DNA of 43,912 bases from contig CALJER010000026.1 in assembly GCA_938074535.1 (NCBI GenBank), positions 1-43,912 of the forward strand, given 5' to 3'. The stretch is from an uncultured archaeon (GTDB taxonomy: Archaea > Hadarchaeota > Hadarchaeia > Hadarchaeales > WYZ-LMO6). The notes below the pieces were generated by a model. That model searched no databases and was not told the origin of the DNA. It saw only the letters and a program-made list of their open reading frames with translations. Shown here piece by piece: positions 23,919-43,912 of the stretch. Position 1 is the first letter of the stretch; each line of letters begins with the position of its first letter. The position numbers were made by a program, and so were the translations under genes.

Positions 23919-24003
23919 CCACTTCATACTTCCTCTCTTGTGGTTGCCAGCTCCAGTCAGGGGGAAACATAATCCTTTTATTCTTTCTTCCCCAGCTTTT
24001 TCT

Positions 24004-24240: not shown

Positions 24241-24248
24241 AAGGGGAG

Positions 24249-24623: not shown

Positions 24624-24631
24624 AGCGGAAG

Positions 24632-26348: not shown

Positions 26349-26414
26349 GGGAACCCTGAATAGCCAAAGAAGATTCCCAGCGACCGCTTTTCCCGAGCAA
26401 AACTTTTTTGACCC

Positions 26415-26987: not shown

Positions 26988-26991
26988 TTCA

Positions 26992-28278
26992 TCAGTACTC
27001 CCTGTGGATTTCCCTGACCAGGGGTTTGGCCAGGTGCCTCCTGCAGCGCGGGGGTACCTCAAAGGATCCCCTCTCCACTTTCCTCTCTACCGGGATGAGT
27101 TTCGGTTTGGCGCTGGGAAAGTGCAGACCGCATTTTTTGCAGGAGTATCCCTTTGACCTCCCCTCGGACTTCAGGCTCTTTCCGCACCTGGGGCAGCTCG
27201 GGTTTTTCTTCCTGAAGAGGGGGACCAGCTCCAGGATGGAGAGCTTCTCCAGGTTGATGGTGCGCGGGATTCCCGGTTCTTCCCTCACCCCCCCGCAGAC
27301 CCTCACCCGGTCGCCCTCCCTCAGACCCCTCACCACTTCCCTGAACCGGCGCGTGGGCTCGTAGGCTGCGCAGTCCACGGTTCCGGTTCCGTCGTCCAGG
27401 GTGAAGATCACGTGTCCCCCAGGTATGGTCCTGGGGTTGCTCGCCACCTTTCCCTCCAGGATCACGGAGGTGCAGGGACGTATTTCCGAGATCGTGCTTT
27501 TCTTCAGGTGTTCGTCGGTTCCCTGGTTGGTTCTGTAAACCATGACCAGTTCCACCGGTTCCATCGCCTTTACGAGTTCGTGGGCCCTCAGCACGGCCTC
27601 GGGACTTTCTCCCCGGATGCCGTAGAGCACGGGGCAGGGAGTATGTGGGGTGATCCTTATCTCCCCCGTGCCGTGGTCCAGATTGTCGAAGGTCCGCGGA
27701 TAGGTCAGGCGGTCCATTAGGAGAACGGAGGAGGGGTCTATTCTCCTCGGTTTGCCCCAGTACTCACGGCTGCGGTAGGCGATGAGCTCGTAGGTCCAGT
27801 CCTTTTCCAGGGGATGTCCGACGGCGGCCAGGGCCCCTATGAGCCCCCTGCCCATCTTGAACTTGTGCACCTCTGCCCCCACCTCCCTGGCCAGGGCCTC
27901 CGCCTCCTCCAGCTCCACCACCTCCTGCACCGTCTTCTTGGCGTAGGATTTCAGCTCCTCCGGGATTTTTTCGGAGGCGTAGAAGACCACCCCGGGATTG
28001 GTGGTTTCCACTTCCATTTCCGCCAGCGAGCGCACGGTTTCAAGCACCCTCTCTTTCACGAGGGGCACCTGAGAGGGTGAGACCTCCACGGTGAAGGAAA
28101 TGGCGCAGTTGCCCCTGGTCTTGTGCGGCCACATGGGGTTCAGCCTTATGAGCTTGGGGTAGCCCTTCACCTCCACCCCCTCCTCCTGCAGGGAGCGGAT
28201 GGCCACGGCTCCCACGTAGGTGGTGCACATGCCGCGCTTGGAATCCGTGTCGTCCACTCCTACGTGGAGCTCCATCAT
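26992..28278 (-). CDS. tiaS: tRNA(Ile2) agmatinylcytidine synthase
   Basis: GVDDTDS..GMCTTY, LIRLNP..P.KTRGN, PHTPCPVLYGIRG, TNQGTDEH, OB fold (AAYEPT), C-terminal Zn ribbon and RRHLAKP. Confidence 0.94.
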   Translation of the reverse strand: MMELHVGVDDTDSKRGMCTTYVGAVAIRSLQEEGVEVKGYPKLIRLNPMWPHKTRGNCAISFTVEVSPSQVPLVKERVLETVRSLAEMEVETTNPGVVFYASEKIPEELKSYAKKTVQEVVELEEAEALAREVGAEVHKFKMGRGLIGALAAVGHPLEKDWTYELIAYRSREYWGKPRRIDPSSVLLMDRLTYPRTFDNLDHGTGEIRITPHTPCPVLYGIRGESPEAVLRAHELVKAMEPVELVMVYRTNQGTDEHLKKSTISEIRPCTSVILEGKVASNPRTIPGGHVIFTLDDGTGTVDCAAYEPTRRFREVVRGLREGDRVRVCGGVREEPGIPRTINLEKLSILELVPLFRKKNPSCPRCGKSLKSEGRSKGYSCKKCGLHFPSAKPKLIPVERKVERGSFEVPPRCRRHLAKPLVREIHREY

Positions 28279-30539: not shown

Positions 30540-32156
30540 ATGCCGGAGGATTTCCTGATAGTGAAAGATCTCACCAAGGAGTTCACTCCCGGTCTTCCTG
30601 TGGTTAGAAATATTTCCCTGACCCTCAAGGAGGCCAAGACTTTCGGGCTATTGGGCAAAAGCGGGCAGGGGAAGTCTGTGATCATGCAGTCCATTCGCGG
30701 GATTCCCGAATACGAGCCCACCAGCGGAGAGGTGATCTTCAGGGTGGCCTACTGCCCCAGCTGCCACTGGGTGGAATATCCCTCCAAGGCGGGGGAGGCC
30801 TGCCCCAAGTGCTCCACCAGGATGGAGTTCAGAGAGGTGAATTACTGGGAGGAGCTGAACAGGCAGAGCAGGATCGGGAAGTCTCTGCACGACAGGATAG
30901 CCATCATGCCCCAGAGGGGTTTCTCCCTCTACAGTGAGTTCCCTGCCGTGGAGAACATCAGGAGGATCCTTCTGAGCATAGGCTACCCGGAGGGGGAGGT
31001 GGATCTGAGGGCGGTTGAGCTCCTTTCGGGCGTGAGGCTCCAGCACAGACTCCTTCACCTTGGAAGGGACCTTTCGGGGGGCGAGAAGCAGAGGGTCATC
31101 TTTGCCATGTGCCTAGCCAGGAACCCCCTGCTCTTCCTGGCGGACGAGCCCACCGGGACCCTTGACCCCATCACCAGCGTGGTGGTCTCCGACGTGATAA
31201 AAGAGGCCGTGGAGAAGGACAAAATCTCCCTTCTGCTTACCTCCCACTGGCCCGAGGCCATAAAGATGCTCACCGAGGAGGCCATCCTCCTTGAGAACGG
31301 TGAGGCCGTTATGAGGGGAAAGTCAGAGGACGTGTATAGAGCCTTCATGGAGAAGGTGGAGAAGCTGGAGGTGCAGAGGTTCAAGGGAACAAACCCCGTG
31401 GTGAAGTGCGAGGGCGTGAGGAAATGGTACTACACCTTTGATAGGGGTTTGGTAAAGGCAGTGGATGGGGTTGACCTGGAGATCTATGAGGGGGAGGTCT
31501 TCGGGATAGTGGGGCTCAGCGGTAGCGGTAAGACCACGCTGGCTCACATGATAATAGGTCTCAAACCCGTTACGCAGGGGAAGATCTCCGTCCGGATAGG
31601 GGATGAGTGGATAGACATGGGCATCCCTGGTCCTGACGAGAGAGGCAGGGCCACCGTCTACATGGATATCCTGCATCAGGAGTATACCCTCCACGCCGGG
31701 AGGATCATTTTGGAGAACCTCACAGGGGTGGTGACGGAGCCCCTTCCGGAGGAGGTGAAGACCCAGAGGGCCTACGAGGTCCTGAGGGCGGTCAATTTCA
31801 CCGACCCCGAAATAGACTACCTCCTCTACAAGCTTCCCGACCAGTTGAGCGAGGGTGAGAGGCACAGGGTGTGCATAGCTAGGTCCCTCATGAAGAAGCC
31901 CAAGCTCGTTCTGCTGGATGAGCCCACGGGGACGGCCGATCCCATTACCAGGGTGGAGATAGCCAAGAGCATAAGGAGCGCTAGGGACGCCCTCGGTCAA
32001 ACCTATCTGATCATAAGCCACGACATAGACTTTATGAAGCTGGCCTGCGACAGGGCGGTGTACATGAGGCACGGGAAGATACAGGCGATGGGAGATCCCG
32101 ACGAGATGATCGATCTGATGGTCAAGACAGAGAGGGCGGCCATGGAGAGTGGTTGA
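30540..32156 (+). CDS. atwA: methyl/alkyl-coenzyme M reductase system component A2 (AtwA)
   Basis: Two ABC domains without TM segments (GKSGQGKS, GLSGSGKT); CPSC...CPKC insert in domain 1; HLGRDLSGGEKQRV, LADEPTGTLDP, TSHWPE, RIGDEWIDM..PGP.ERGRAT, LSEGERHRV are characteristic of component A2. Confidence 0.88.
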   Translation: MPEDFLIVKDLTKEFTPGLPVVRNISLTLKEAKTFGLLGKSGQGKSVIMQSIRGIPEYEPTSGEVIFRVAYCPSCHWVEYPSKAGEACPKCSTRMEFREVNYWEELNRQSRIGKSLHDRIAIMPQRGFSLYSEFPAVENIRRILLSIGYPEGEVDLRAVELLSGVRLQHRLLHLGRDLSGGEKQRVIFAMCLARNPLLFLADEPTGTLDPITSVVVSDVIKEAVEKDKISLLLTSHWPEAIKMLTEEAILLENGEAVMRGKSEDVYRAFMEKVEKLEVQRFKGTNPVVKCEGVRKWYYTFDRGLVKAVDGVDLEIYEGEVFGIVGLSGSGKTTLAHMIIGLKPVTQGKISVRIGDEWIDMGIPGPDERGRATVYMDILHQEYTLHAGRIILENLTGVVTEPLPEEVKTQRAYEVLRAVNFTDPEIDYLLYKLPDQLSEGERHRVCIARSLMKKPKLVLLDEPTGTADPITRVEIAKSIRSARDALGQTYLIISHDIDFMKLACDRAVYMRHGKIQAMGDPDEMIDLMVKTERAAMESG

Positions 32157-32157
32157 G

Positions 32158-33000
32158 ATGGCGTACGATGAAGCCCTTACGGAAGAGATAAAGCGCCTGG
32201 CGCTCAGCCTGGGGGCGGACAAGGTGGGGGTGGGGGAAGCAGAGAGGGCGGACAAGACCCCCATGTTTTTCGCGTCTCCCTTCTCCTTCATGAAGGATGC
32301 CAAGGCGGTGGTTTCCCTCTGCATGAGATACCCCGAGGGAGCGCTTGCCTTCTCCAAGGAAGACTTCTTCGTCATTCTCTCCTCCTACGCCTCCGTGAGG
32401 GAGGCCATGCTGAAGAGGCTCAACGAGATAGCCCTGGCCGTCTCCAGGGAGCTCGAGAAGAGAGGATACGGGGCCACCCCGCTGGAGGCCAACCTGCCCG
32501 TGGATGAGAGGCGCTGGGTGAGCTGCCTGCTCTCGCACAGGTACCTTGCCCAGATTTCCGGCCTGGGGGATATAGGCGCCAACAACATGCTCATCACCCC
32601 GGAGTGGGGGCCCAGGGTGGAGCTAGCGAGCGTTATCACCAACGCTCCTCTAAAGCCAGACGGTCCGAAACTGGCGGGCAGGATCTACGAGGAAACCTGC
32701 AAAAACTGCTTCAAATGTGTGGAGGCTTGCCCCACCCAGGCCCTCACCAGGGAAAAGACGCCTCCCTACAACTTCGAGCTGAACAGGTGTCTGTGGGCCA
32801 CCCAGGGCTGGATGATGCTCTCCAAGATTGAGATCCCGCCGGAGGAGTGGATAAGCGCCAGGCCCACCTCGATGGTGATGGTCCCCAAGTACACTGCCAA
32901 GTATCCCTTCATCAAGGTCTACCAGGAGTGGCAGAAGAGGAAAATGGACTTTCCGTGCTGCATCGAGTGCACACTGGCCTGCCCGGTGGGGAAGAGGTAA
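32158..33000 (+). CDS. QueG/reductive-dehalogenase-like Fe-S (probably cobalamin) protein
   Basis: LGADKVG, SHRYLAQISGLG.IG.NNMLITPEWGPRV.LASVITNA, CKNCFKCVEACP...RC...CIECTLACP. Confidence 0.8.
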   Translation: MAYDEALTEEIKRLALSLGADKVGVGEAERADKTPMFFASPFSFMKDAKAVVSLCMRYPEGALAFSKEDFFVILSSYASVREAMLKRLNEIALAVSRELEKRGYGATPLEANLPVDERRWVSCLLSHRYLAQISGLGDIGANNMLITPEWGPRVELASVITNAPLKPDGPKLAGRIYEETCKNCFKCVEACPTQALTREKTPPYNFELNRCLWATQGWMMLSKIEIPPEEWISARPTSMVMVPKYTAKYPFIKVYQEWQKRKMDFPCCIECTLACPVGKR

Positions 33001-33009
33001 GGTGAGAGC

Positions 33010-33246
33010 TTGCTGGAGTGTACCTCTTGCGGCTGGAAGGGCCGGGAGGAAGAGACGGCCAAGGTTTACGTATGTCCGGATTGCGGCACGGGGCATCTGA
33101 AGCTCTTTCGTCTTCTCAAGAGAAGGGATGGGAGGTTGCAGTGCCCCAAGTGCACCTGGATAGGGTTGCCTGAAGAGGCACTAAAGGAACCGGAGTGCCC
33201 CAAGTGCGGCAACCCCTATCTGAAGGAGGTCACTGCTACCGTCTGA
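33010..33246 (+). CDS. small duplicated zinc-ribbon protein (4 x CxxC)
   Basis: Internal repeat C..C.W.G..EE....CP.CG...LK occurs twice; TTG start after GGTGA. Confidence 0.7.
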   Translation: MLECTSCGWKGREEETAKVYVCPDCGTGHLKLFRLLKRRDGRLQCPKCTWIGLPEEALKEPECPKCGNPYLKEVTATV

Positions 33247-33292
33247 GGACCGGGCGGGCGGAGCTGCGCCATCCATGTCTCAGCGGGAGCCC

Positions 33293-34579
33293 TCACATCG
33301 CGTTTGCCACGAGCTCCGTAAGATCGTATACCCGCAGGGGCAGCTTGGAGGCCTCCACCGCATCGCTCAGGTTTCTCCTGCAGAAGGGGCAGGTGGAGAC
33401 GATGGCCTGGGCCCCTGTCTCCTGGGCTTCCCTGAGTCTTTCCGTCGCGGTCCAGATGGCCCAGTCGGGGTAGGCTGACTTGGCCCCGCCGCCAGCGCCG
33501 CAGCACCACGAAAGCTCCCGGTTGCGGGGCATTTCGGTGAGCTTCACGCCGGGGAGGGCTTTCAGGACGTTCCTGGGGGGCTCAAAGACCTTCTCTTTCT
33601 CCAGCTCGGGGAGGTAAATCGAGACGTGCCTGCCGGAGTGGCAGGGATCGTGGTAGGTCACGTGGAGGTTCAGGGGTTTGGAGAAGCTGAGCTTTCCTTC
33701 TCGCAGGAGGGAATCCAGGAGGTCGGAAGTGGTCAGGATTTCAAAATCGGGTTTTATTCCGAAGAGCTTGGGATAGTCCAGCTTGAGGGTCTTGTAGCAC
33801 CCCGCGCAGGAGGTGATGACCCTCTTTGCACCGGCATCCTTTATGACCTCCACGTTGTGCTTTGCCACTTCCTCCGCCAGCTTCCTCTGCCCGGTGCGGA
33901 GCAGGGGAGAACCGCAGCACCACTCATCCTCTCCCAGCAGACCGAAGTCTATCCCCAGCTTCCTGAAAATTTGCACGGTGGATTGGGCAATCATCTGCTG
34001 GCGGTAGGAGGCGGTGCACCCCACGAAGTAAATGGTCTCAGCCCTCCTCGGATATTTGCTTCCGTTGGCCCAGGCAGCCCGGTTCTGGGCGGGTTCGTAG
34101 TAGGGATTGTGGTTGTTCTTTATGCTCTCTCCGTACTTGGCCTGCACGGGCATGGGTCCCCACCCTATCTCCACCAGGTAGGTGCGGAGATCCTCCATGA
34201 TCTGCACGGTGTCCTCGGCCTTGTATCCCAGCCCGGAGTGGTCTTTGCAGTTCACCGAGCAGGAGCCGCAGAGCGTGCACCCATAGACGACGTTGAGCAG
34301 CCCGTCGGTGGGTCTGGTGATGATGTCCTCGTTGAGCCCCCTCACCAGCTCCATCTTTCCGTAGGAGTAGAAGGCCTCGTGTCCGAAGTAGGTGCCGCTG
34401 GGGCAGTTGTCCATCACCCTACCGAGCTTGTGGTAGTCGCCCACGCTGCAGGCTCTGCAGTGGGCGCAGAGGTAACTTAGCTTATGCCACTTCTTTATCG
34501 TTTCAGTTTTAGGAGGCACAAGAATATGGTGCTTGTGTTCTTTATAAGTATTTCGCTTTATGTGTTTTAGAACATGCAC
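33293..34579 (-). CDS. HdrD/GlcF-like Fe-S oxidoreductase with two CCG domains
   Basis: CAHCRAC...CP, CTLCGSCSVNC, YFVGC, EWCCGSP, TSCAGC, TYHDPCH, SWCCGAGGG, STCPFC. Confidence 0.88.
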   Translation of the reverse strand: MHVLKHIKRNTYKEHKHHILVPPKTETIKKWHKLSYLCAHCRACSVGDYHKLGRVMDNCPSGTYFGHEAFYSYGKMELVRGLNEDIITRPTDGLLNVVYGCTLCGSCSVNCKDHSGLGYKAEDTVQIMEDLRTYLVEIGWGPMPVQAKYGESIKNNHNPYYEPAQNRAAWANGSKYPRRAETIYFVGCTASYRQQMIAQSTVQIFRKLGIDFGLLGEDEWCCGSPLLRTGQRKLAEEVAKHNVEVIKDAGAKRVITSCAGCYKTLKLDYPKLFGIKPDFEILTTSDLLDSLLREGKLSFSKPLNLHVTYHDPCHSGRHVSIYLPELEKEKVFEPPRNVLKALPGVKLTEMPRNRELSWCCGAGGGAKSAYPDWAIWTATERLREAQETGAQAIVSTCPFCRRNLSDAVEASKLPLRVYDLTELVANAM

Positions 34580-34631
34580 AAAGAGGAAGAAAAAGACCTT
34601 TTTTGAGGACGAGAAGGAAGAACATCCGATA

Positions 34632-34641
34632 AATTTATAAA
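34632..34641 (+). promoter_or_regulatory. TATA box of the operon starting at 34663 (divergent from the HdrD-like gene)
   Basis: AATTTATAAA about 25 nt upstream of ATG 34663 in an AT-rich intergenic region. Confidence 0.55.
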
Positions 34642-34662
34642 CGTCCGTGGTAAAAAGAGAGT

Positions 34663-35346
34663 ATGCCTTCGGAGCAGGAGCTGCTTCAGGAAATAGAGCG
34701 CAGAGCCATAGACAACAAGGAAAACGCCCTTCAAGTTCGTGCCGGGAAACTTTCCGGCGACACCGTCATTTACATCGCCTTCTCCCCCTATCTCCCCTGC
34801 CTCATAAGAACGGGTGCCGCGGAGGCCAGGAGCCTTTTCGGGATGAAGGCGGAGATGGCTTGCCACGTGCTGAACGAGGCCAACGAGATCATCTTCTCCT
34901 ACCTGATAAGGTTCGATGAAGGGTACGTCACCGATTACCAGAGATTGGATCTCAACCTCACCCACCCCACCACCGGTACCCCTCTGCGCGATGCCATCAA
35001 GGGGAGGAGCGTTTACTGGAAGAACCCCACTGGGCCGGCCTTTGCGGGAGAAATAGTGGATTCCGTCAGGAAGGACAAAAGTTATAAGCTGTTCACCGGA
35101 GTAGGCTACCTGAAGGACTTCGAGGAGGGCATGGCCATACCGGATGAAAACCTGGAGGCGAAGTGCGCCCTGAACTACGATCTCCTGGAAATAAGGAAGA
35201 GGGCGGCCATCTACCCCATGCCCGCCACCATGAGGGGTTTCTTGCTGATGGGAAGAGCGGACTTTACCGATTGGCTGAGGGAGATCCTGGGAGGGGAGGA
35301 CCTCCTCCCGCTTATTCACACGGTGAGGGAGAGGCTGAGGAGATAG
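34663..35346 (+). CDS. hypothetical protein, possibly SCP2/sterol-carrier-like lipid-binding fold
   Basis: Host-like codon usage and first gene of an operon; C-terminus AKCALNYDLL.....IYPMPATMRGFLLMG resembles the SCP2 pattern. Confidence 0.55.
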   Translation: MPSEQELLQEIERRAIDNKENALQVRAGKLSGDTVIYIAFSPYLPCLIRTGAAEARSLFGMKAEMACHVLNEANEIIFSYLIRFDEGYVTDYQRLDLNLTHPTTGTPLRDAIKGRSVYWKNPTGPAFAGEIVDSVRKDKSYKLFTGVGYLKDFEEGMAIPDENLEAKCALNYDLLEIRKRAAIYPMPATMRGFLLMGRADFTDWLREILGGEDLLPLIHTVRERLRR

Positions 35347-35347
35347 T

Positions 35348-36820
35348 ATGGAAGCCGAAGTTAAGGACAGGATCCTGGCGCTTCTGCAGGATATCGTGGG
35401 GCCGGAGCACGCCTCCGCGGACCCCGCTCTGCTCATTCCCTATTCCAGAGATCAGCACTGGCCCATAGCCGGCACCCACATGCCGGACTATGTGGTCAGG
35501 CCCAAAACGGTGGAGGAGGTCCAGAAGGTTCTGCGCCTGGCCAACAGGTACAGGATTCCCGTGATACCGGTCAGCAGCAACACCAACATCCGGGGGCTCA
35601 CCATCCCCCACCACGGGGGGATCATGCTGGATCTGAAGAGGATGGATTACCTGGAGATAGATGCAAAGAACAGGGCGGCCGTAGTAGGTCCGGGGGTCAG
35701 CTGTGCCAGGCTGGCGGACGAGGCTGAGAAGTACGGGCTCAGGCCCATCATCCCCGGGGCTCCCTCCACGGTCAACATGCTCTCCAACTGCCTGCTGAGA
35801 GGAGTTTCCAACATAGGCCCCAGGTACGGCCACACCGGCGACCAGGTCCTCGGGATGGAGGTGGTCCTGCCCACGGGGGAGATCCTGTACACGGGGGCGG
35901 CGGCCTTCCCCAACGTGGGGCCCTACTTCAGGTACTTCGGCCCAGACTGGGCGGGTCTCTTCCAGGGGCAGCCCGGGATCATGGGGGTGGTGACCAAGAT
36001 GGCGGTCAGGCTCTACCCCCTCCCCGAGCGCCAGGAGATGTTCATGTGCGGTTTCAACCAGAGGGAGGGCGAGCCGGAGGAGGGCCCCCTGCGCAGGGCC
36101 ATGGCCTTCATGCACGACCTCATGCTCCACGATCCACCCGTCATCACCTTCGGGGTGATCCTCCACTGGGTGGCCGCCGCCATCACCATGGTGGAGAAGA
36201 GGGAGGACATAGACGCCTTCAAGGGGACCCTGGGCGACTGGGTGGTGCTGGGTTCCATCGAGGGCTCCAGGGACTTCGTGAAGTACGCCAGGTCGGTGGT
36301 GGAGAAGGAGATCAAGAAGCACTGGGACAACATAGACGAGGGCAGGGAGGTGGTGCTCATGTCGAAGATGCTGAGGGACGAGCTGAAGGCGGCGCGCAGG
36401 ATCTTCAGGTGGTTCAGGCTGGGGAACTACTACGCTCTGGCCTGGTGGGGGCCGCTGGACAGGTTCGACAGGTACTACTTCGAGGCCCTGAAGGTATGGA
36501 GGGAGCTCGGGATCACGGAGGAGCTTTCCATCGTGGGCATTCCTGCCTACCCCTACGTGGGGCAGCTGACCTATTACGAGTTCGACAGCTTCTGGGACTC
36601 CACGGACGAGAGGAACACGGAGAAGATCAAGAAGTTCACCGAGCTCATGTACCAGAAAATGATCGACTTGGGGATCTACTGCTGGTTCAGACCGTACCCT
36701 GGGGTATACGAGAGCACCATTCCCAGGCTGAAGGGGTGCATGGGCGAGCTCTGGTACAAGGTCAAGAAGCTCCTGGATCCCAACAACATCATGAACCCTG
36801 GCAAGGTCTTCCCCGAGTAG
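35348..36820 (+). CDS. FAD-binding oxidoreductase, VAO/PCMH (GlcD-like) family
   Basis: YSRD, PDYVVRP.TVEEVQ.V.RLAN, GGIMLDLKRM, VGPGV, GMEVVLPTGEI, G.MGVVTK, KKLLDPNNIMNPGK. Confidence 0.88.
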   Translation: MEAEVKDRILALLQDIVGPEHASADPALLIPYSRDQHWPIAGTHMPDYVVRPKTVEEVQKVLRLANRYRIPVIPVSSNTNIRGLTIPHHGGIMLDLKRMDYLEIDAKNRAAVVGPGVSCARLADEAEKYGLRPIIPGAPSTVNMLSNCLLRGVSNIGPRYGHTGDQVLGMEVVLPTGEILYTGAAAFPNVGPYFRYFGPDWAGLFQGQPGIMGVVTKMAVRLYPLPERQEMFMCGFNQREGEPEEGPLRRAMAFMHDLMLHDPPVITFGVILHWVAAAITMVEKREDIDAFKGTLGDWVVLGSIEGSRDFVKYARSVVEKEIKKHWDNIDEGREVVLMSKMLRDELKAARRIFRWFRLGNYYALAWWGPLDRFDRYYFEALKVWRELGITEELSIVGIPAYPYVGQLTYYEFDSFWDSTDERNTEKIKKFTELMYQKMIDLGIYCWFRPYPGVYESTIPRLKGCMGELWYKVKKLLDPNNIMNPGKVFPE

Positions 36821-36832
36821 GTCGGTGTTAGG

Positions 36833-37867
36833 GTGGCCGAGCCCGACAAACTGATGACGGCCAAAGAGGCCGTTAAAAAGTTTGTGAGGGACGGCTGCAG
36901 CATCACGCTGGCGAACTTCGCCACCTGTGAGCCCTTCGCCCTCGTCCACGAGGTGATAAGGCAGAGGAAGAGGGATCTCTACCTCATCAAGTCCTCGGGC
37001 TTCATGGCCTCGGATCAGTTGCTTGCCGCCGGGTGCCTGAAGAGAATCCTCACCTCCTGGCACCTCCGGATGTCGCCCACCTCCTACTACTCACCCATCG
37101 ACAAGCTCCTGAAGGAGAAGAAGGTGGAGATGGAAGATTACAGCAACTGGACGGTGGCTGCCAGGCTTCTGGCGGGGGCCTGGGGCCTGCCTTTCTTTCC
37201 GGTGAAGGGCAGCTCCCTTCTCCACAGTGATATCTCCAGGGTCAGGAGCTTCGAGGGGGAGAACAAGATGAAGGTGGTGGAGAATCCCTTCAACCCAAAG
37301 GAGAAGGTGGTCCTGGTTCCGCCCCTCAACCCCGACGTGGCCCTCGTTCATGCCCAGCGCGCCGACAGGAACGGCAACGTGCAGCTGTGGGGACCCCTGG
37401 GTGACACGGTGTACGCCGCTCTGGCCAGCAAGGTGATCATCGCCAGCGTGGAGGAGATCGTGGAGGAGGAGAGCATCAGGAGGTCTCCTTTCCTCACGGT
37501 CATCCCAGAGTTCAGGGTCAACGCCCTGGTGCACGAGGAGTGGGGGGCGCACCCCATGGAGTGCCTGGGGTACTACGACATGGACGAGCCCTTCCTCCTC
37601 ATCTGGTACGCCCTGCTCACCAGGAAGATGATGGAGAGCTTCATGGACGAGTGGATCTTCGGGGTGGAGAGCCGCACGGAGTACATAGAGCACTACGTGG
37701 AGAGGTTCGGGATGGAGAAGCTCAACAGCCTGAGGGCCAAGAAGTACCTCTCGGACGCCGTGAACCTGGGATCCACCTTCGAAGGGGACATGAAGAGGTG
37801 GGGAATAGACTGGAGCTTCTTCGAGCAGCCCGTCTCGGAGATGGTGGAGTGGGAGGTGGAGGAATGA
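36833..37867 (+). CDS. family I CoA-transferase subunit A (glutaconate CoA-transferase-like)
   Basis: KLMT.KEAV..FVRDG, RLLAGAWGLPF.P, PDVALVHAQRADRNGNV, GAHP....GYYD.D. Confidence 0.88.
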   Translation: MAEPDKLMTAKEAVKKFVRDGCSITLANFATCEPFALVHEVIRQRKRDLYLIKSSGFMASDQLLAAGCLKRILTSWHLRMSPTSYYSPIDKLLKEKKVEMEDYSNWTVAARLLAGAWGLPFFPVKGSSLLHSDISRVRSFEGENKMKVVENPFNPKEKVVLVPPLNPDVALVHAQRADRNGNVQLWGPLGDTVYAALASKVIIASVEEIVEEESIRRSPFLTVIPEFRVNALVHEEWGAHPMECLGYYDMDEPFLLIWYALLTRKMMESFMDEWIFGVESRTEYIEHYVERFGMEKLNSLRAKKYLSDAVNLGSTFEGDMKRWGIDWSFFEQPVSEMVEWEVEE

Positions 37868-38820
37868 AGATCAGGATCACCCCGCTGGAGATGCTCGCCT
37901 ATTCGCTGGCCAGGGAGCTCAGGGACGGAGAGGTGGCCTTCGTGGGACAGGGACACCCCATCGTGGCCGCCTGCCTGGCGAAGAAGTTCTTCGCCCCCAA
38001 CCTGAAGATCCTGATGGAGGGAGGGATCTACGGCCCGGAGCCATACCGTCCCCCCTGGCACGTGGCGGACCTCACGGCCACCAGGGGATGTCTGATGCTC
38101 ACGGATTTCGCAGGGGTCTTCCAGTCCATTCTGTCCAGGGGTTTCGTGGACGTGGGGATCCTGGGCTGCTCGCAGGTGGACAAGTACGGAAACATCAACA
38201 CCACGGTGGTGGGCGACTACTTCAGCCCCGTTCTCAGGTTGCCGGGAAGCGGCGGGGGGCACGAAGTCGGGAGCTTCTCGAAGAGGCTCCTCATCACCAT
38301 GGCCGGGGGGAGGTTCGTGGAGAAGCTGGATTACGTGACCACCCCGGGCTGGCTGGAGGGAGGGGATGCCAGGGAGAGGGCGGGCCTGCCCGGGGGCCCG
38401 GCGGCCCTCATAACCAAAAAAGCGATCTTCAGGTTCCATCCCCGGACGAAGGAGATGTACCTGGATGCGAGGTATCCCTGGGTTTCGGTGGAGGAGATAA
38501 GGAAGGAGATCCCCTGGGAGCTGAAGCTGGCCGAAGACGGTGTGAAGGTGGCCCCCCTTCCCAGCCCTGAGGAGCTCAGGTTCATCAGGGAGTTCTCCCC
38601 CCTCACCGCCCTCAGGAGGGACTACTACCTCATGGAGAAGGTCACGGAGAGGCACTGGAGGCTGGAGGCTTCGGATGAGCCCCTCCTCACCAGGATAGTG
38701 GAGATAAGGGACGAGGAGAGGGAGGCCATAAAGAGGAGGATCGCGATGAAGAGGGAGGCGAGGGGGAGCTTCTTCAAGAAGGAAATGGAGAGGTGGAGGG
38801 AGGGCTCAGCGCAGGGGTAG
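37864..38820 (+). CDS. family I CoA-transferase subunit B
   Basis: ARELRDGEVAFVG.G.P, catalytic Glu in LMEGG, LGCSQVDKYGNIN, RLPGSGG, FVEKLDYVTTPG; ATG overlaps the subunit A stop. Confidence 0.88.
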   Translation: MKIRITPLEMLAYSLARELRDGEVAFVGQGHPIVAACLAKKFFAPNLKILMEGGIYGPEPYRPPWHVADLTATRGCLMLTDFAGVFQSILSRGFVDVGILGCSQVDKYGNINTTVVGDYFSPVLRLPGSGGGHEVGSFSKRLLITMAGGRFVEKLDYVTTPGWLEGGDARERAGLPGGPAALITKKAIFRFHPRTKEMYLDARYPWVSVEEIRKEIPWELKLAEDGVKVAPLPSPEELRFIREFSPLTALRRDYYLMEKVTERHWRLEASDEPLLTRIVEIRDEEREAIKRRIAMKREARGSFFKKEMERWREGSAQG

Positions 38821-40671
38821 GAACTCCCCAAGCCCCAGCTCCCTCACCTTCTCCTCCTTGGGGATCCCCTCCTCGTCCCACCCCACCATCCGGTAGTAGG
38901 CGTCGAGCATCTCCTCGAAGGTCTTCCTGTCGAGCACCTGCCCCCGGGAGAAGCCGTCGGGGAGGGGCTCGGTGAAGAACCTCTCCGGCAGGGTGTCGTC
39001 CTTCCTGGTTATTCCCTCCCTCACGTTGAACAGCCTCTGGAGGGTCCAGATCCTCTCCCCGATCCTGTCCACCTCCCCTTCATCGATCTCCCACCCCGTG
39101 ACGGCGGAGAGGGAGGAGGCCATGAGGGAGGGTGTGAAAACGATGCCGGCGAAGAACTTGCAGAGCACGGCGGACTCCACCACGGTGTACCTGCGCTCCA
39201 GGGCCACCTCGGCCTTCACCTTCTCCAGATCCAGGGCCTGGGGATCTAGCGGGGAGTCCAGGGGGTACATCCAGGTCATCGTTCCTATGTCCAGGTAGAG
39301 CATGCCGGTGGTGATGTGGCATCCCCCCCTGTTGCCCAGGGCGTAGGTGAGGGCCATCCCCTTCATGCCCCTGGGCTCGTAGCCCGCGTACTCCAGTCCT
39401 TTGGTCTGCATGGCGTACTTCTCCGACCCCCTTCCGAGCTTCCTGGCGGCCAGCCTGGTGCCTTCGGCCAGCAGATCCCCTATTCCCCTCCTCTCCCCTA
39501 TCCTCCTCACCAGCTCCACCATGGTTTCCCCGTTCCCCCAGCTGAGATCCAGTCCGTCTGCCTCCTCCCTTTTGAGCAGTCCCTTCTCGTGGCACTCCAT
39601 GGCGAAGGAAATCGCCCTCCCGCAGCTTATCCCGTCCATCCCATACTCGTTGACGAGCTGGTGGCAGATGGAGACGGTTTCCAGATCGGAGTTCCCGCAT
39701 CCGGCCCCGAAGGTGTTGACGTGCTCGTACTCCGGTCCCCAAACCACCATTCCCCGATATGGACCCGATTTCACCACCGAGACCCTGCCGCAGGCTATAG
39801 GGCACCCGAAGCACCCCACCTTCTTCACCAGCAGGGTCCTGGAGAGGGTGGGACCGGAGAGCTTCTCCCACTCCTCGAACCAGCCGCTCTGGAAGTTCCT
39901 GGTGGGGAAAGCGGCGATGCCGCTGGTGAAGGAGGTCATGGCGTCCGTGCCGTAGAGGTGGAGGGAGCGGACGAAGGGCTCGGACTTCCACACCTCATAC
40001 ATCTTCTTCACCACCTCCGAGACCTTTTCGGGCTCCGCCACCTTCACCCCCCCGTGCCCCCTGACCGCCACCGCCTTCAGCTTCTTGGAACCCATCACCG
40101 CCCCCGCCCCGCATCTCCCCGCGGCCCTCCCCTCGTCGTTGATGATGGAGGCGAACCTCACCAGTTTTTCTCCGGCCGGCCCTATGCAGGCCACCCTCAC
40201 CTCCTCGTCCCCTAGTTCCTTCCTTATCCTCTTCTGCGTCTCACCGGTGGTGGCACCCCACAGGTGCTGTGCCTTCCTCAGCTCCACGGAGTCGTCGTCT
40301 ATCCACAGGTAGACGGGTGAGGGCGAGACCCCCTCCACGATCAGGGCATCGTACCCCGCGAACTTCAGCTCGGGTCCCCAGTGTCCCGCCGAGCTGGACC
40401 AGCCCAGGATGGAGGTGAGAGGCGATTTGAAGGTCACCACGTACCTCCCGGTGGGTATCCTGGTGCCGGTGAGGGGGCCGGTGCAGAAGAAGAGCTTGTT
40501 CGACTCGCCCAGGGGGTCCGCCCCGGCTGGGACCTCCTTGAGGAGGAGATAGCTCCCCAGACCCACCCCCCCCAGGAACTTCCTGGCAGGTTCCGGGGGA
40601 AGGCCCTCCTTCACGATTTTACCCGTGGAGAGGTTCACCCTCAGCATCTTTCCCGTGTATCCGCCCTTCAT
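38806..40671 (-). CDS. aor: tungsten-dependent aldehyde:ferredoxin oxidoreductase
   Basis: GYTGKMLRVNLS, KSPLT, IGPAGE.LVRFA, GRAAGRCG.GAVMGSKKLKA, GCFGCPIAC, PEYE, RGGCH, DDTLPERF. Confidence 0.93.
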   Translation of the reverse strand: MKGGYTGKMLRVNLSTGKIVKEGLPPEPARKFLGGVGLGSYLLLKEVPAGADPLGESNKLFFCTGPLTGTRIPTGRYVVTFKSPLTSILGWSSSAGHWGPELKFAGYDALIVEGVSPSPVYLWIDDDSVELRKAQHLWGATTGETQKRIRKELGDEEVRVACIGPAGEKLVRFASIINDEGRAAGRCGAGAVMGSKKLKAVAVRGHGGVKVAEPEKVSEVVKKMYEVWKSEPFVRSLHLYGTDAMTSFTSGIAAFPTRNFQSGWFEEWEKLSGPTLSRTLLVKKVGCFGCPIACGRVSVVKSGPYRGMVVWGPEYEHVNTFGAGCGNSDLETVSICHQLVNEYGMDGISCGRAISFAMECHEKGLLKREEADGLDLSWGNGETMVELVRRIGERRGIGDLLAEGTRLAARKLGRGSEKYAMQTKGLEYAGYEPRGMKGMALTYALGNRGGCHITTGMLYLDIGTMTWMYPLDSPLDPQALDLEKVKAEVALERRYTVVESAVLCKFFAGIVFTPSLMASSLSAVTGWEIDEGEVDRIGERIWTLQRLFNVREGITRKDDTLPERFFTEPLPDGFSRGQVLDRKTFEEMLDAYYRMVGWDEEGIPKEEKVRELGLGEFLPLR

Positions 40672-41165
40672 CCCTTCACCTCCTTCAGGGCCTCGCCGGA
40701 GAGCATGAGCCCCGCGAGCAATTTCTGGGCCGCGGAGATCCTGTTTTTCAGGCCCGCCGTTTCCGAGGGCACCAGCTCCAGGGCCCCGGTGGGGCAGGCC
40801 TTCGCACACTCCGGGTCGCCGTCGCAGAGGTCGCAGACCCTGACCACGTTGGTTTCCTCGTCGAGCACGATGGCTCCGAACGGGCACACGTTCAGGCACC
40901 AGGTGCATCCTATGCATTTCTGCGGATCCACCTTTATCCTGTGCCTCTCGTCCACCTCCAGCGCCCCTTCCGGACAGGAACTCACGCAGGGCGGTTTCTC
41001 GCAGAACTGGCAGCTGAGGGGAAGGAAGAAGTAGGGCGGTACGAAGGTCACCCTTATCAGGGCCTTTTTGGGGTTGTACTCCTTCTTTTTGGCGTCCAGA
41101 CAGGCGAGTTCGCACGTTCTGCAGCCGGTGCACTTGTCCAGGTCCACCCGGAGGTACAGGCGCAT
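40668..41165 (-). CDS. 4Fe-4S dicluster electron-transfer subunit of AOR
   Basis: CTGCRTCELAC, CQFC..PPCVSSCP, CIGCTWCLNVCP, CDLC.GDPECAKACP; overlaps the aor start. Confidence 0.92.
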   Translation of the reverse strand: MRLYLRVDLDKCTGCRTCELACLDAKKKEYNPKKALIRVTFVPPYFFLPLSCQFCEKPPCVSSCPEGALEVDERHRIKVDPQKCIGCTWCLNVCPFGAIVLDEETNVVRVCDLCDGDPECAKACPTGALELVPSETAGLKNRISAAQKLLAGLMLSGEALKEVKG

Positions 41166-41195
41166 TTCCTCCCTTTTCACCCGAAGGTTAAAAAC

Positions 41196-42935
41196 TTATT
41201 TCCCTTCGCCCCCGAGTTCGGAGAGGAACTCGGCGCCGGGCATTTCCCTGAAGCTCCTCACCACCTCCTCCGGGTCACCCTCTTTCACCAGCCTCCCGTC
41301 CAGCATGAGGAGGGCCCTGTGTGAGATCTCACGGACGAAGTCCAGGTGGTGGCTCACCACGATCATGGTGAGGCCCATCTCCCTGTTGAGGAGCTTCAGC
41401 ACGTTGGTCACCCCGCGCAGGGTGAGGGGGTCCAGGTCCCCGAAGGGTTCGTCCAGGAAGAGGAGGCTGGGGCGGAAAAGGAGCTCGAGCGCTATGGCCA
41501 GCCTGATCCTCTCCCCCCAGGAGAGCTCGAAGGTCTTCCTCTCCAGCACCTCCTCGCCGAGCCGGCAGAGCCTCAGGGTGGGCTTTACCACCCTGGAGAC
41601 GGCCTTCCAGGGGGCCACGGGGAAGAGCTCCTCCACCAGGTTCTCCCCCAGCCCGAGCTCCCTCAGCCTTGCCTCCGCCTCCTTCTCCGGGTAGTCGGTG
41701 AGTCTGTAGAGGGCGTCCACCACCTCCTCCCTGAGGCCCAGCTCCCTGGCCTTGAGCCTGGCACGGGCGACCGCCCTCTCCCCCTTCACCCCCATCCTGG
41801 ACATGGCCAGCTCCTTCACCGTGGCGTGGTAGGGGAGGTCCAGCTCCTGGTGGAGCCTCCCTATCCTCCTCCTCACCTCCATCGCCCGGTAGCTCAGCCT
41901 GGTGATGTCCACCGTCCTTCCCCCCATCCTGTACAGGACCTCACCCTCGTCGGGCAGCTCCAGACCCGAGAGAAGCCTGAGCAGGACGGTCTTTCCCACC
42001 CCCGACGGTCCCACGATGGAGAGGATCTCTCCCTCCCTCACGTCGAAGCTCACCCCCCTGAGCTCGAAGGTCTCCCGCAGCACCTCGGCGTGGTACTTCT
42101 TCCTGAGGTTCCTCACCTTCAGGAGGGTTCTGCGCCTGGGAGGGGAGAGGGGAAGGGGCGGCTCGAGCTGGGAGAGGAAGCGTGAAATCACCTCCCTGGG
42201 AGGACCCACCGCGAGGATCCTCCTCTCCAGCCACATCACCCTGTCGGAGAGGGCGAGCAGGAGGGAGGGCAGATGGGAGGCCACGACCACGGAGACCCCC
42301 AGCTTTTCCCTGGCTCTCCTTATCTCGTCCACCGCCTGCTTCTTGGTGGCCGGGCAGGTCATGGTCACGGGCTCGTCCAGCAGGAGGAGGGGCTTCTCCC
42401 CCAGGGCCAGCTGCCTGGCCAGCACCAGCCTCTGCTTTTCCCCCCCGCTGAGGGTGAAGGCGGGATGCCCGGCCTTGTGCAGCAGCCCCACCCTTTCCAG
42501 GAGCTCCCTGCCCTTCCCCTGGAGCCTCTGGAAGTCCTCGGAGTCCTCGGGCGGGAGGGGAGCTGCCTCGTCCCCCGTTTCGAGCGCGTTGAGCCTCCTC
42601 ATCACGTTTTCCAGAACGGTTCCTTCCCAGAGGCCGAAGGAGCGCTGGAGGTGGAGGGCGGTCAGCTCCCTCAGCCTGCTGAAGGCCTCCGGGGGGGAGG
42701 AAGGGGTGACGGTGATTTCCCCCATCCTTATCTCCCCCTTCTCGAAGGGGAGCGAGCCCCTGAGCACGCGGATGAGGGTGCTCTTTCCCCCCCCGCTTCT
42801 GCCTATGACGCCCAGGATCTCCCCCCTCCCCAGGTCGAAGGAAAGGTCCTCGAGGGCCTCCACCCTTCCCCCACCCTCGAGCGAATAGCTCTTGCAAAGG
42901 CCCCTGACGCTGAGGAGAGCGCCCCCTGGCTCCAT
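41196..42935 (-). CDS. dual-ABC-domain soluble ATPase, component A2 (AtwA) paralog
   Basis: GRSGGGKST and GPSGVGKT Walker A motifs; HLQRSFGLW, LSGGEKQRL and DEP match A2-type proteins; no CxxC insert and no neighbouring permease. Confidence 0.72.
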   Translation of the reverse strand: MEPGGALLSVRGLCKSYSLEGGGRVEALEDLSFDLGRGEILGVIGRSGGGKSTLIRVLRGSLPFEKGEIRMGEITVTPSSPPEAFSRLRELTALHLQRSFGLWEGTVLENVMRRLNALETGDEAAPLPPEDSEDFQRLQGKGRELLERVGLLHKAGHPAFTLSGGEKQRLVLARQLALGEKPLLLLDEPVTMTCPATKKQAVDEIRRAREKLGVSVVVASHLPSLLLALSDRVMWLERRILAVGPPREVISRFLSQLEPPLPLSPPRRRTLLKVRNLRKKYHAEVLRETFELRGVSFDVREGEILSIVGPSGVGKTVLLRLLSGLELPDEGEVLYRMGGRTVDITRLSYRAMEVRRRIGRLHQELDLPYHATVKELAMSRMGVKGERAVARARLKARELGLREEVVDALYRLTDYPEKEAEARLRELGLGENLVEELFPVAPWKAVSRVVKPTLRLCRLGEEVLERKTFELSWGERIRLAIALELLFRPSLLFLDEPFGDLDPLTLRGVTNVLKLLNREMGLTMIVVSHHLDFVREISHRALLMLDGRLVKEGDPEEVVRSFREMPGAEFLSELGGEGK

Positions 42936-42988
42936 CTCTCCATTTAAACCCTCGATGGGGCTAAAAGGGAAATCCCCCCCATTTGGGT

Positions 42989-43912
42989 GTGAGGACGGTC
43001 ACGCTGGCCTCCCCCGAGGTCTACTCCTACGGTGCCATGCTCATCGGGGGGGTGCTGAGGGAAAGGGGTTACAGGGTCAGGCTGGTCCGCGGGCTGGAGG
43101 GACTCGAGGGAGAGCTGGTGGGCCTGAGCCTGACCTCCCTCTCCCACCTCCGGGAGGCCAGGAGAGTGGTGCCCCTTCTGAGGGGAAGGGGTGCCAGGGT
43201 GGTGGTGGGGGGGCCCATCACGCAGGTGCCCGAGCTGGTCCTGAGGTCCCTTCCGGAGGTGGATGCGGTGGTGGTGGGGGAAGGGGAGAGCACGGCTCCC
43301 GAGCTCTTCGAGGCCCTCTCCTCGGGAAGGGAGCTGGAGGAGGTGGAGGGGCTGGCCTTCCTGAGGAACGGGGAGGAGGTGAGGACCCCTCCTGCGGAGC
43401 CGCCGGAGCTGCGGGGCAGGCCCCTGCCCGAGATACCGCCCGATGTGTGGAAGCAGGACATAAGGGGGGCCCAGGTCTACCTGGAGACCCACAGGGGATG
43501 CCTGGGGGGGTGCGGTTTCTGCCAGGTCCCCTGCTTCTTCGGCCGCAGGGTGAGGTCGAGGCCGCTGGAGGAGATCGTGAGGGAGGCGGAGGCCTTCAGG
43601 GAAAGGGGGGTGAGCAGGATTTCCCTCTTCGGAGGCACCTCCACTCACTACGGCAGGGAGAGGGGCGCGGAGGGGGACTTCATAGAACTCCTGGAAAGGG
43701 TGAGCGGAGTGCTGGGGCCTCGGAACCTCTCCGTTCCGGATCTGAGGGTGGACGAGAGCAGCAGGGAGGTGCTGGAGGCCCTGAAGAGGTACACCATAGG
43801 CTTCGTGCTCTTCGGCATAGAGTCGGGGAGCGAGCGGATGCTGTGGAAGATGAGGAAGGGAATCACGGTGGAGAAGATACGGGAGGGGGTGGAGAGGGCC
43901 AGGGAGGCGGGG
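42989..43912 (+). CDS. B12-binding radical SAM methyltransferase, MCR glutamine C-methyltransferase (MgmA)-like, 3'-truncated (absent from the ORF track)
   Basis: GTG start; MRTVTLASPEVYSYGAMLIGGVL N-terminus; VVGGP and VVGEGE cobalamin-domain motifs; ETHRGCLGGCGFCQVP.FFGR..RSR (CxxxCxxC); SVPDLRVD; FGIESGS. Confidence 0.78.
   Translation, partial: MRTVTLASPEVYSYGAMLIGGVLRERGYRVRLVRGLEGLEGELVGLSLTSLSHLREARRVVPLLRGRGARVVVGGPITQVPELVLRSLPEVDAVVVGEGESTAPELFEALSSGRELEEVEGLAFLRNGEEVRTPPAEPPELRGRPLPEIPPDVWKQDIRGAQVYLETHRGCLGGCGFCQVPCFFGRRVRSRPLEEIVREAEAFRERGVSRISLFGGTSTHYGRERGAEGDFIELLERVSGVLGPRNLSVPDLRVDESSREVLEALKRYTIGFVLFGIESGSERMLWKMRKGITVEKIREGVERAREAG

Follow-up and report, generated by a model that had tools for sequence, protein, structure and literature searches.

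Candidate genes for the conversion of alkyl-coenzyme M to acyl-coenzyme A beside reductase accessory genes in an uncultured Hadarchaeota archaeon

How might an archaeon with an alkyl-coenzyme M reductase (ACR) carry alkyl-coenzyme M (alkyl-CoM) onward to acyl-coenzyme A (acyl-CoA)? This question is raised by a gene block at positions 30540-43912 of a contig from an uncultured archaeon of the Hadarchaeota. In this study, the whole stretch of 43,912 nucleotides was analyzed (hereafter the window; contig C26 of assembly G000, which comprises 1.2 Mb in 53 contigs and is 93.6% complete). Accessory genes of methyl-coenzyme M reductase (MCR) and ACR bracket the block. Between them lie genes for a flavoprotein of the vanillyl-alcohol oxidase (VAO)/p-cresol methylhydroxylase (PCMH) superfamily (P0002), an HdrD-like iron-sulfur (Fe-S) protein, a 227-residue protein (P0001), a family I CoA-transferase, and an aldehyde:ferredoxin oxidoreductase (AOR) with a ferredoxin. 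The block is quite probably a functional neighbourhood linked to ACR, in an archaeon of the long-chain-alkane type. An earlier note on this DNA had read it as a route from alkyl-CoM through aldehyde and acid to acyl-CoA. Judged from the sequence evidence, this route is the best single reading, still unproven, with a probability of roughly 0.45; ACR, beta-oxidation genes and a recurring flavoprotein/HdrD pair speak for it, and the note's expectations of ACR specificity, whole-block synteny and an SCP2 protein fell away.

In the proposed route, the flavoprotein, aided by P0001, would dehydrogenate the carbon next to the sulfur in alkyl-S-CoM, or alternatively an intermediate derived closely from it, for example the free alcohol. 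The dehydrogenated alkyl-CoM product would fall apart into an aldehyde and HS-CoM, and the two electrons would pass to the HdrD/TfrB-like partner, whose CCG domains would most plausibly reduce the heterodisulfide of CoM and coenzyme B (CoM-S-S-CoB) or another disulfide. The ferredoxin-AOR pair would oxidize the aldehyde to a fatty acid, and the GctAB-like CoA-transferase would convert the acid to acyl-CoA, probably from acetyl-CoA, for entry into beta-oxidation. AtwA, a paralog of the activation component A2, and MgmA would serve ACR itself. What the flavoprotein acts on, in which direction the reaction runs and what accepts the electrons are proposed assignments. This route is preferred because the other readings leave the carrier-like proteins, the ferredoxin-AOR pair and three interchangeable acid-activating enzymes unexplained.

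In passages of six papers, the step from alkyl-CoM to acyl-CoA is stated to be unknown apart from an AOR proposal (PMC10811742, PMC11297162, PMC10322722, PMC11543930, PMC11493965, PMC7175092), and the candidates that these passages name are corrinoid methyltransferases and AOR. A route from alcohol through aldehyde and acid to a CoA ligase is proposed in part of PMC6703427. The portions of the ethane, butane, petroleum-alkane and hexadecane oxidizer literature searched, which reach to November 2024, contained no proposal that the flavoprotein/HdrD clade, P0001 or SCP2 proteins act on alkyl-CoM; the supplements of PMC11297162, PMC10322722, PMC11543930 and PMC10811742 lay outside this search.

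The host genome and the flavoprotein/HdrD pair

The window holds no mcr or acr subunit gene, as the earlier note had said, and the genome search that it called for located both mcr/acr and beta-oxidation genes. Contig C53 carries mcrB, mcrG, a 522-aa open reading frame (ORF) without family (ORF523) and, at its end, the N-terminus of mcrA, and a second mcrA N-terminus terminates contig C21; the McrA C-terminal domain had no match in the G000 assembly. Each mcrA copy meets a contig end near position 129 of its N-terminal domain (G000:C53:1-492 and G000:C21:28927-29298), which looks as though two mcrA genes of near-identical sequence had been collapsed as a repeat. In the same-genus genome G003, one mcrA lies upstream of mcrB and a second, partial mcrA lies downstream of mcrG. 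The ACR typing rests on a complete 607-aa McrA of a same-genus genome, the copies of G000 being cut. This protein was 73-76% identical to the McrA of Bathyarchaeota BA1/BA2, 56-60% identical to those of Helarchaeota/Hodarchaeota and about 40% identical to methanogen McrA; it is thus closer to the divergent ACR type than to canonical MCR and is therefore regarded as an ACR-type enzyme. Within the window's order, MCR_beta was present in all six genomes of the window's own family (f1, including G000) and in none of the 35 others. The beta-oxidation matches in G000 comprised 10 Acyl-CoA_dh_1, 3 ECH_1 (enoyl-CoA hydratase) and 2 strong 3HCDH_N (3-hydroxyacyl-CoA dehydrogenase) domains together with thiolase and electron transfer flavoprotein (ETF).

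The flavoprotein has an FAD_binding_4 domain above the cut-off and an FAD-oxidase_C match under it (20.2 versus 21.2). It could be read as an ordinary D-lactate or glycolate dehydrogenase (GlcD) with an Fe-S subunit, since several relatives are named 'glycolate oxidase' or 'D-lactate dehydrogenase' at their source, the best NCBIfam model is GlcD (TIGR00387), and mouse D-lactate dehydrogenase was the top fold match by E-value. The GlcD model scored only 106.3 bits against a cut-off of 567.9, however, and the motifs HxGDGNxH and EHG, whose residues are metal or substrate ligands, occurred neither in P0002 nor in 120 of its hits (P0004-P0123; 121 flavoproteins checked). Both motifs are present in a paralog on contig C9 of the same genome; the mouse enzyme carries GEHGIG only. 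In the alignment, this 'GEHGIG' falls on 'WFRPYPGV' of P0002, so that Arg-Pro takes the place of Glu-His. The position faces F-R-P across the 37-sequence clade alignment, in which the F-R dyad is invariant, and a strict WFRP-type pattern occurred in 32 of the 37 clade members versus 1 of 84 other hits. Moreover, the P0002 profile matched p-cresol methylhydroxylase (2.6e-49) about as well as D-lactate dehydrogenase (2.4e-47). The AF2 model (pLDDT 84.5) did not separate the two groups in the fold search, with TMq values of 0.80 for the mouse enzyme and 0.81-0.84 for the VAO/PCMH enzymes. A plain GlcD identity is therefore very improbable; by its sequence, P0002 is predicted not to be a lactate/glycolate dehydrogenase, and the earlier note's reading, which action on lactate/glycolate alone would refute, is supported to this extent by the missing Glu-His motif of the mouse enzyme.

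The C9 paralog belongs to a third flavoprotein/HdrD-like pair of the genome (G000:C9:38339-41562); its flavoprotein has the canonical HxGDGNxH and EHG, so that an ordinary enzyme of the GlcD/D-lactate dehydrogenase type, with an HdrD-like partner, is also encoded in the genome. The second pair (G000:C49:12386-17882) follows a DUF2117 gene, and its HdrD-like protein and flavoprotein are 37% and 48% identical to those of the window. It faces, in convergent orientation, a gene for an NDP-forming acyl-CoA synthetase, and genes for thiolase, ETF-alpha and two further CCG proteins are nearby.

The HdrD-like protein shows the domain layout of HdrD, with Fer4_8 at residues 37-112 followed by two CCG stretches, and it scored under every curated cut-off (TfrB, 194.8 versus 385; HdrB models, 70 versus 345 and 27 versus 450). 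A homolog of it adjoins the flavoprotein in nearly every related locus with enough flank, and the two proteins are an obligate pair. The earlier note had named them as partners; in the window, the HdrD-like gene is transcribed divergently, outside the flavoprotein operon.

In the searches made here, members of the pair's clade turned up in no organisms but MCR/ACR-bearing archaea. In a set of 5.8 billion clustered proteins, the nearest relatives of P0002 from other lineages were named Methanoliparum thermophilum, Methanolliviera, Hodarchaeota and Helarchaeota, and a gap in score from 275 to 210 bits split them from a large generic set. Among GTDB genomes (one genome per species), five records matched at E of about 1e-85 to 1e-89 and the next hit at 2e-48; the five were an ANME-1 record (anaerobic methanotrophic archaea), a Hadarchaeota record, two records that cluster with the ANME-1 one in the first tree described below, and Argoarchaeum ethanivorans. 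McrA was present in all five genomes. Within the window's order, flavoprotein orthologs were confined to family f1 (6/6 versus 0/35). The pair occurred in 2 of 251 sampled Methanosarcinia genomes, one being Argoarchaeum ethanivorans; with the Methanoliparum protein as query, 3 of 401 sampled Halobacteriota genomes matched at E <= 1e-90. In the class Syntropharchaeia, the flavoprotein was found in 45 of 79 genomes. A metagenome scan with the flavoprotein alignment gave no close relative among the matches listed (best identity, 33%). The Argoarchaeum assembly carries the flavoprotein gene twice (G045:C11:2427-3824 and 26043-27440), as mirror images equidistant from the contig ends, which is probably a palindromic assembly artefact.

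In two trees, the ACR-associated pairs formed a clade of their own, apart from the pairs of Verstraetearchaeota and bacteria, and the window flavoprotein grouped with those of Methanoliparia and of the Syntropharchaeia genome G296 (SH-aLRT 96-97). Both were quick IQ-TREE trees with SH-aLRT support only; the first held P0002, those P0004-P0065 sequences that exceed 400 aa (without P0003 and P0040), 2 paralogs from G000 and 10 ORFs from the loci, and the second held 38 hand-picked rows.

These trees bear on a second explanation, in which the pair is a generic thiol/disulfide module that leaves the alkyl chain uninvolved: the flavoprotein would oxidize a small organic donor and the HdrD-like protein would reduce CoM-S-S-CoB, or the reverse reaction would regenerate the heterodisulfide for ACR. 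A 'proposed hdrD-glcD complex' regenerating CoM and coenzyme B (CoB) appears in a part of PMC6783470 (see also PMC8407382). Many bacteria and archaea have flavoprotein/HdrD-like pairs as such, NCBIfam places the HdrD-like protein nearest to TfrB, a thiol:fumarate reductase subunit, and the pair is present in ANME-1-like genomes. Against such a module stand the separate clade, its own F-R-P signature and its lack of the Glu-His motif of D-lactate dehydrogenase, and a substrate that bears a chain is suggested by the neighbouring genes for lipid carriers, AOR and acid activation. This explanation is considered less likely than the alkyl-CoM route, yet a serious rival to it.

Gene neighbourhoods and the weighing of the route

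The earlier note had expected the segment 33293-38820 to be syntenic in other ACR-bearing archaea. Synteny of the whole segment held only within the window's own family; in other phyla, the flavoprotein/HdrD pair recurred beside ACR genes or beside AOR and acid-activating genes. In Methanoliparum thermophilum (the locus being named by 100% identity to a named protein), the order is flavoprotein, SCP2 protein, HdrD-like protein, SCP2 protein, atwA, mcrC, mcrD and an mcrC-like gene, and upstream, at a distance of 6 kb from the flavoprotein gene, there is a 42% homolog of the A2 paralog. In the Helarchaeales genome G645, a flavoprotein-HdrD operon is divergent from, and 305 bp away from, the operon mcrA-x395-atwA-x166-mcrB-mcrG. 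In G296, which has three ACR-type mcrA matches (the best 49% identical to Hadarchaeota ACR), nine tightly packed genes lie on one strand in the order AOR, ferredoxin, P0001 homolog, flavoprotein, HdrD, x90 (90 aa), AMP-forming ligase, x374 (ligase-like) and AMP-forming ligase; the ferredoxin and the P0001 homolog are 42% and 35% identical to those of the window.

Between the A2 paralog and the flavoprotein locus of Methanoliparum, two URO-D/MtaA-like genes and a corrinoid-protein gene were observed (L238, G378:C3, 3930-6676). Enzymes of the corrinoid/MtaA kind are invoked for alkyl-CoM conversion in passages of PMC6703427.

The acid-activating enzyme beside the pair differs among loci, being a CoA-transferase in the window, AMP-forming ligases in G296 and an NDP-forming acyl-CoA synthetase on contig C49; the acid-activating step thus has three kinds of enzyme and is non-orthologously replaced. 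A P0001-family or SCP2 protein accompanies the flavoprotein in the window, Methanoliparia and G296 loci, which form one tree group, and this association fits a lipophilic substrate.

P0001 itself had been described as SCP2-like. The gene actually present (Table 1) has no SCP2 match: at E <= 0.01, P0001 matched no Pfam or NCBIfam family, SCP2 (PF02036) included, and an hhalign comparison with a Methanoliparum SCP2 protein gave a probability of 0.2%, so that this assignment is not supported by sequence. Neither P0001 nor ORF523 had a PDB sequence match or a usable ESM Atlas match. The best AF2 model of P0001 had a pLDDT of 71 and the other four 42-45, a moderate result that is inconsistent between runs. 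Foldseek gave no hit at E <= 0.001, with UbiJ-SCP2 at ranks 4-5 and a non-significant E of 0.2 (TMt 0.42-0.44). The family is very small: a search of 5.8 billion proteins gave 12 clusters, and one of 1.84 billion gave 5 representatives. It occurred in 1 of 79 Syntropharchaeia genomes (G296) and in none of 5 Methanoliparia/GoM-Arc1 genomes, and one homolog is labelled 'Hadesarchaea archaeon' at its source. A comparison of the P0001 profile with that of the family ORF523/x395 gave a probability of 72% (E 3.3e-5, 210 columns), and the control, run against the flavoprotein alignment, had an E of 0.19. P0001 is judged from these profiles to be a remote homolog of ORF523/x395, which is encoded inside acr operons, and is a possible carrier or adaptor.

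In the Hadarchaeota operon, ORF523 separates mcrG from mcrA (L002, G000:C53, 524-2092, minus strand), and x395 lies between mcrA and atwA in Helarchaeales (L246, G645:C94, 6181-7368, minus strand; BLASTP 2e-17 against ORF523). Further members occur beside ACR-type mcrA (G296:C22:25509-26099 and G370:C1:299585-299755) and in Methanoliparum (G378:C9:20562-21968); none was found in the ANME-1 and GoM-Arc1-like genomes tested, and the family has no Pfam match. A second small protein was observed upstream of mcrB in both acr operons (L002, G000:C53, 4280-4891, minus strand; L246, 4030-4530, minus strand); the two proteins, of 203 and 166 aa, are 48% identical.

The enzymes assigned to the last two steps belong to the expected families. 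PF01144 was found in both CoA-transferase subunits, as in family I, and the Glu of 'IIVESG' in the beta subunit, which we take to be the catalytic Glu, is conserved and aligns with that of 'ILMEGG' in 1POI_B. The AOR has both AFOR_N and AFOR_C and scored 257 against the cut-off of 868 for the AOR equivalog NF007354.

Could these genes have come together by chance in a small, gene-dense genome, with the ACR accessory genes, redox pair, CoA-transferase and AOR forming no functional unit? The four directions of transcription in the block, the confinement of full-block synteny to one family, three further AOR paralogs in G000 and the Gct-like CoA-transferases of non-ACR relatives would agree with this. 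However, parts of the block have recurred independently, with protein identities of 35-55%, in Methanoliparum, Helarchaeales and G296, a recurrence that would be hard to obtain by chance, and a fortuitous grouping is thus considered rather improbable.

Several observations weigh against the alkyl-CoM route. The window's family and G296 are the only places where AOR and acid-activating genes adjoin the pair; in ANME-1 G60, the AOR gene is 3 kb away with unrelated genes between, and the neighbours are unrelated in G232 and in one Helarchaeales locus. The most recurrent neighbour is atwA, which encodes an activation factor rather than a catabolic enzyme, and the HdrD-like gene of the window is divergently transcribed. 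CoA-transferase homologs of 32-42% identity occurred in 7 of 35 non-ACR relatives, close orthologs being restricted to f1. The CoA-transferase is also not clearly a fatty-acid enzyme, as the solved GctAB-type enzymes are named for short dicarboxylates. A search for sequencing runs containing window positions 33293-38820 listed no RNA run and a single DNA run, possibly the source. Furthermore, the specificity to ACR-bearing archaea that the earlier note had expected did not hold. Only 4 of 8 clear multi-ACR Syntropharchaeia had the pair (G296, G362, G363 and G369), and it was not found in the other four (G297, G370, G371 and G372); 22 of 31 Syntropharchaeia with only ANME-1-like McrA had it, and methane oxidation needs no alkyl-to-acyl step. 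In Helarchaeales, it was not found in 4 of 7 genomes (including Hel_GB_B), and McrA was present in all seven. In these counts, a clear ACR is a full-length McrA at least 45% identical to Hadarchaeota ACR, and the 31 ANME-1-like genomes have full-length McrA of 38-42% identity only, as does the named record G041; genomes with fragmentary or no McrA are excluded, as are G364 and G365 (43% identity, partial; both with the flavoprotein). As the pair was not found in some ACR genomes, the route cannot hold for all ACR archaea, and the ANME-1 copies also need to be explained by it.

The prominence of atwA keeps alive a role in the activation or repair of ACR/MCR. The pair would then supply or bifurcate electrons and, together with A2, the A2 paralog and McrC, keep the Ni cofactor of a reverse-running MCR/ACR active, with AOR and CoA-transferase as mere neighbours. 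The recurrence of atwA beside the pair spans three phyla (the window; Methanoliparum, followed there by mcrC-mcrD; Helarchaeales, as part of the acr operon). Within the order, only the ACR-bearing family has the A2 paralog (6/6 versus 0/35 other genomes), which also lies near the pair in Methanoliparum; mgmA is in the same block, and the 22 ANME-1-like genomes with the pair run MCR in reverse. Activation would nevertheless leave unexplained the interleaved SCP2 proteins of Methanoliparum, the single-strand operon of G296 with AOR, ferredoxin and two AMP-forming ligases, and the genes surrounding the C49 pair (acyl-CoA synthetase, thiolase and ETF). Moreover, 249 of the 251 sampled Methanosarcinia are without the pair, and these are assumed to include methanogens and ANME-2, which also need MCR activation. 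On balance, an activation role is less likely than the alkyl-CoM route, yet a serious rival to it.

The ANME-1 copies may also be reconciled with alkyl-chain processing, on the tentative and rather speculative view that one flavoprotein/HdrD enzyme is common to Hadarchaeota, Methanoliparia, Helarchaeota, GoM-Arc1 and some Syntropharchaeia, that P0001 or SCP2 proteins pass on long alkyl chains to it, and that in ANME-1 it would convert methyl-CoM to formaldehyde. To our knowledge, ANME-1 methanotrophs lack Mer, and formation of formaldehyde from methyl-CoM would therefore explain how they manage without it.

Taken from this locus and its relatives in three other lineages, the flavoprotein/HdrD clade, the P0001-like family, ferredoxin with AOR, and a CoA-transferase or CoA ligase constitute a concrete, small and assayable set of candidate proteins for the alkyl-CoM step. 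With so few proteins and a substrate open to synthesis, the case merits experiment. If activation is instead the function, the pair would be a new component keeping reverse-running MCR/ACR active, which matters for ACR production in other hosts.

Gene content of the block

Genes were called from the ORF listing with Pfam and NCBIfam scans, and strands and starts were set by third-position GC (GC3) and Shine-Dalgarno sites (Table 1). By these scans, the gene types named in the earlier note, apart from the SCP2 protein discussed above, were all recovered at or near the places given for them. The gene at the start of the block exceeded the A2 equivalog cut-off and has two ABC ATPase domains, and mgmA passed its own equivalog cut-off (TIGR04014) despite truncation. 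For the second A2-like ATPase, the double ABC architecture was confirmed; its score falls short of the A2 equivalog, which was rejected for this gene, and it was treated as a paralog.

Table 1. Genes of the block at positions 30540-43912 of the window
Feature	Position	Strand	Evidence
atwA, MCR/ACR activation component A2, 538 aa	30540-32156	+	TIGR03269 646.8 bits versus cut-off 517.1; two ABC_tran domains
QueG/reductive-dehalogenase-like Fe-S protein, 283 aa (weak assignment)	32149-33000	+	TIGR00276 57.3 bits (cut-off 200) and TIGR02486 55.7 bits, far under cut-offs; 4Fe-4S motifs
Small zinc-ribbon protein, HVO_2753-like, 78 aa	33010-33246	+	PF07754 26.3 bits (under cut-off); NF011481 29 bits
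HdrD/TfrB-like Fe-S protein, 428 aa, flavoprotein partner	33293-34579	-	Two CCG domains (4.4e-38) and Fer4_8; TfrB best NCBIfam match
P0001, 227 aa, very small family	34663-35346	+	GC3 0.75; predicted remote homolog of a protein encoded inside acr operons
VAO/PCMH-superfamily flavoprotein P0002, 490 aa	35348-36820	+	FAD_binding_4 4.2e-28
Family I CoA-transferase alpha subunit, GctA-like, 344 aa	36833-37867	+	PF01144 2.5e-24; best PDB match 1POI_A, 1e-47
Family I CoA-transferase beta subunit, GctB-like, 318 aa	37864-38820	+	PF01144 1.6e-22; 1POI_B 2.9e-46
AOR family enzyme, 621 aa	38806-40671	-	AFOR_C 5.2e-137 (457.5 bits); AFOR_N 9.2e-81 (270.8 bits)
Polyferredoxin, 170 aa, upstream of AOR with 4-nt overlap	40668-41180	-	Fer4_7 3.8e-16, Fer4_11, others
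A2-like double ABC ATPase, 579 aa	41196-42935	-	TIGR03269 282 bits versus cut-off 517.1
mgmA, MCR glutamine C-methyltransferase (B12/radical SAM), cut at residue 310 by the window end	42983-43912	+	TIGR04014 378.8 bits versus cut-off 360; B12-binding and Radical_SAM

P0001, the flavoprotein and CoA-transferase subunits A and B form an operon on the plus strand, separated from the HdrD-like gene by an 83-bp gap, and the minus-strand genes for the A2-like ATPase, polyferredoxin and AOR converge on it. The plus strand of P0001 was assigned from its GC3, against 0.54 in the overlapping minus-strand ORF; the minus-strand ORFs 34567-35436 and 35312-37063 have no families and a GC3 of 0.54-0.55 and were rejected as genes. 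For AOR, an ORF of 775 aa was judged overlong and the start was moved to 40671, where a GGAGGTGA site precedes it and the 154 codons upstream have a GC3 of 0.47 and are non-coding. A Shine-Dalgarno site and GC3 likewise placed the start of CoA-transferase B at 37864. The genes for the QueG-like protein and the zinc ribbon are translationally coupled to atwA (8-bp overlap), an arrangement kept in the same-genus genome G002. Upstream of 30540 lie housekeeping genes for arginyl-tRNA synthetase (ArgRS), IscS/IscU-like proteins and transcription factor B (TFB). At window positions 24001-26000, GC drops to 0.48 from about 0.60 around; this segment overlaps genes for a class V aminotransferase and a NifU-like protein.

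Comparison with known systems

The HdrD-GlcD proposal for MCR-bearing Verstraetearchaeota/Bathyarchaeota, as set out in a part of PMC6783470, resembles the window in placing a VAO-superfamily flavoprotein beside a two-CCG HdrD-like protein. The window pair differs in belonging to a separate clade with invariant F-R-P and in lying beside atwA, mcr, carrier-like, AOR and acid-activating genes; moreover, that proposal concerns heterodisulfide reduction with a lactate-like donor, whereas alkyl-chain processing is suggested here.

With mitochondrial D-lactate dehydrogenase (PDB 8JDC) and GlcD, the window flavoprotein shares the two-domain VAO fold (TMq 0.80) and FAD_binding_4, but Arg-Pro in 'WFRPYPGV' replaces Glu-His of 'GEHGIG' and HxGDGNxH is missing. 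The best full-length profile match (2.6e-49; TMq 0.81-0.84) is to p-cresol methylhydroxylase and the vanillyl-alcohol/eugenol oxidases (PDB 1DII, 1WVE, 5FXD), which dehydrogenate a C-H bond next to an activating group and pass the electrons to a separate redox subunit. That partner is a cytochrome in the p-cresol methylhydroxylase kind, whereas it would be the HdrD-like Fe-S protein in the window. A chemical precedent for the proposed first step is prenylcysteine oxidase, a flavoenzyme that cleaves a thioether to an aldehyde and a thiol; it is oxygen-dependent and has a different flavoprotein fold.

Thiol:fumarate reductase (TfrAB) links CoM/CoB thiol-disulfide chemistry to an organic substrate and, like the window pair, combines a CCG-domain Fe-S subunit with a flavoprotein. 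The TfrA flavoprotein is of a different superfamily, however, and the window protein reached 194.8 of the 385 bits set for TfrB. GctAB (PDB 1POI) is the best PDB match of both CoA-transferase subunits and shares the conserved Glu of 'IIVESG'; unlike GctAB, the window enzyme has a flavoprotein and AOR as neighbours, and its genome carries many beta-oxidation genes. Finally, in the AOR proposal for ethyl-CoM in Ca. Ethanoperedens, as given in a part of PMC7175092, AOR alone acts on CoM- or CoA-bound units, whereas in the route suggested here AOR would act between the flavoprotein/HdrD step and the CoA-transferase.

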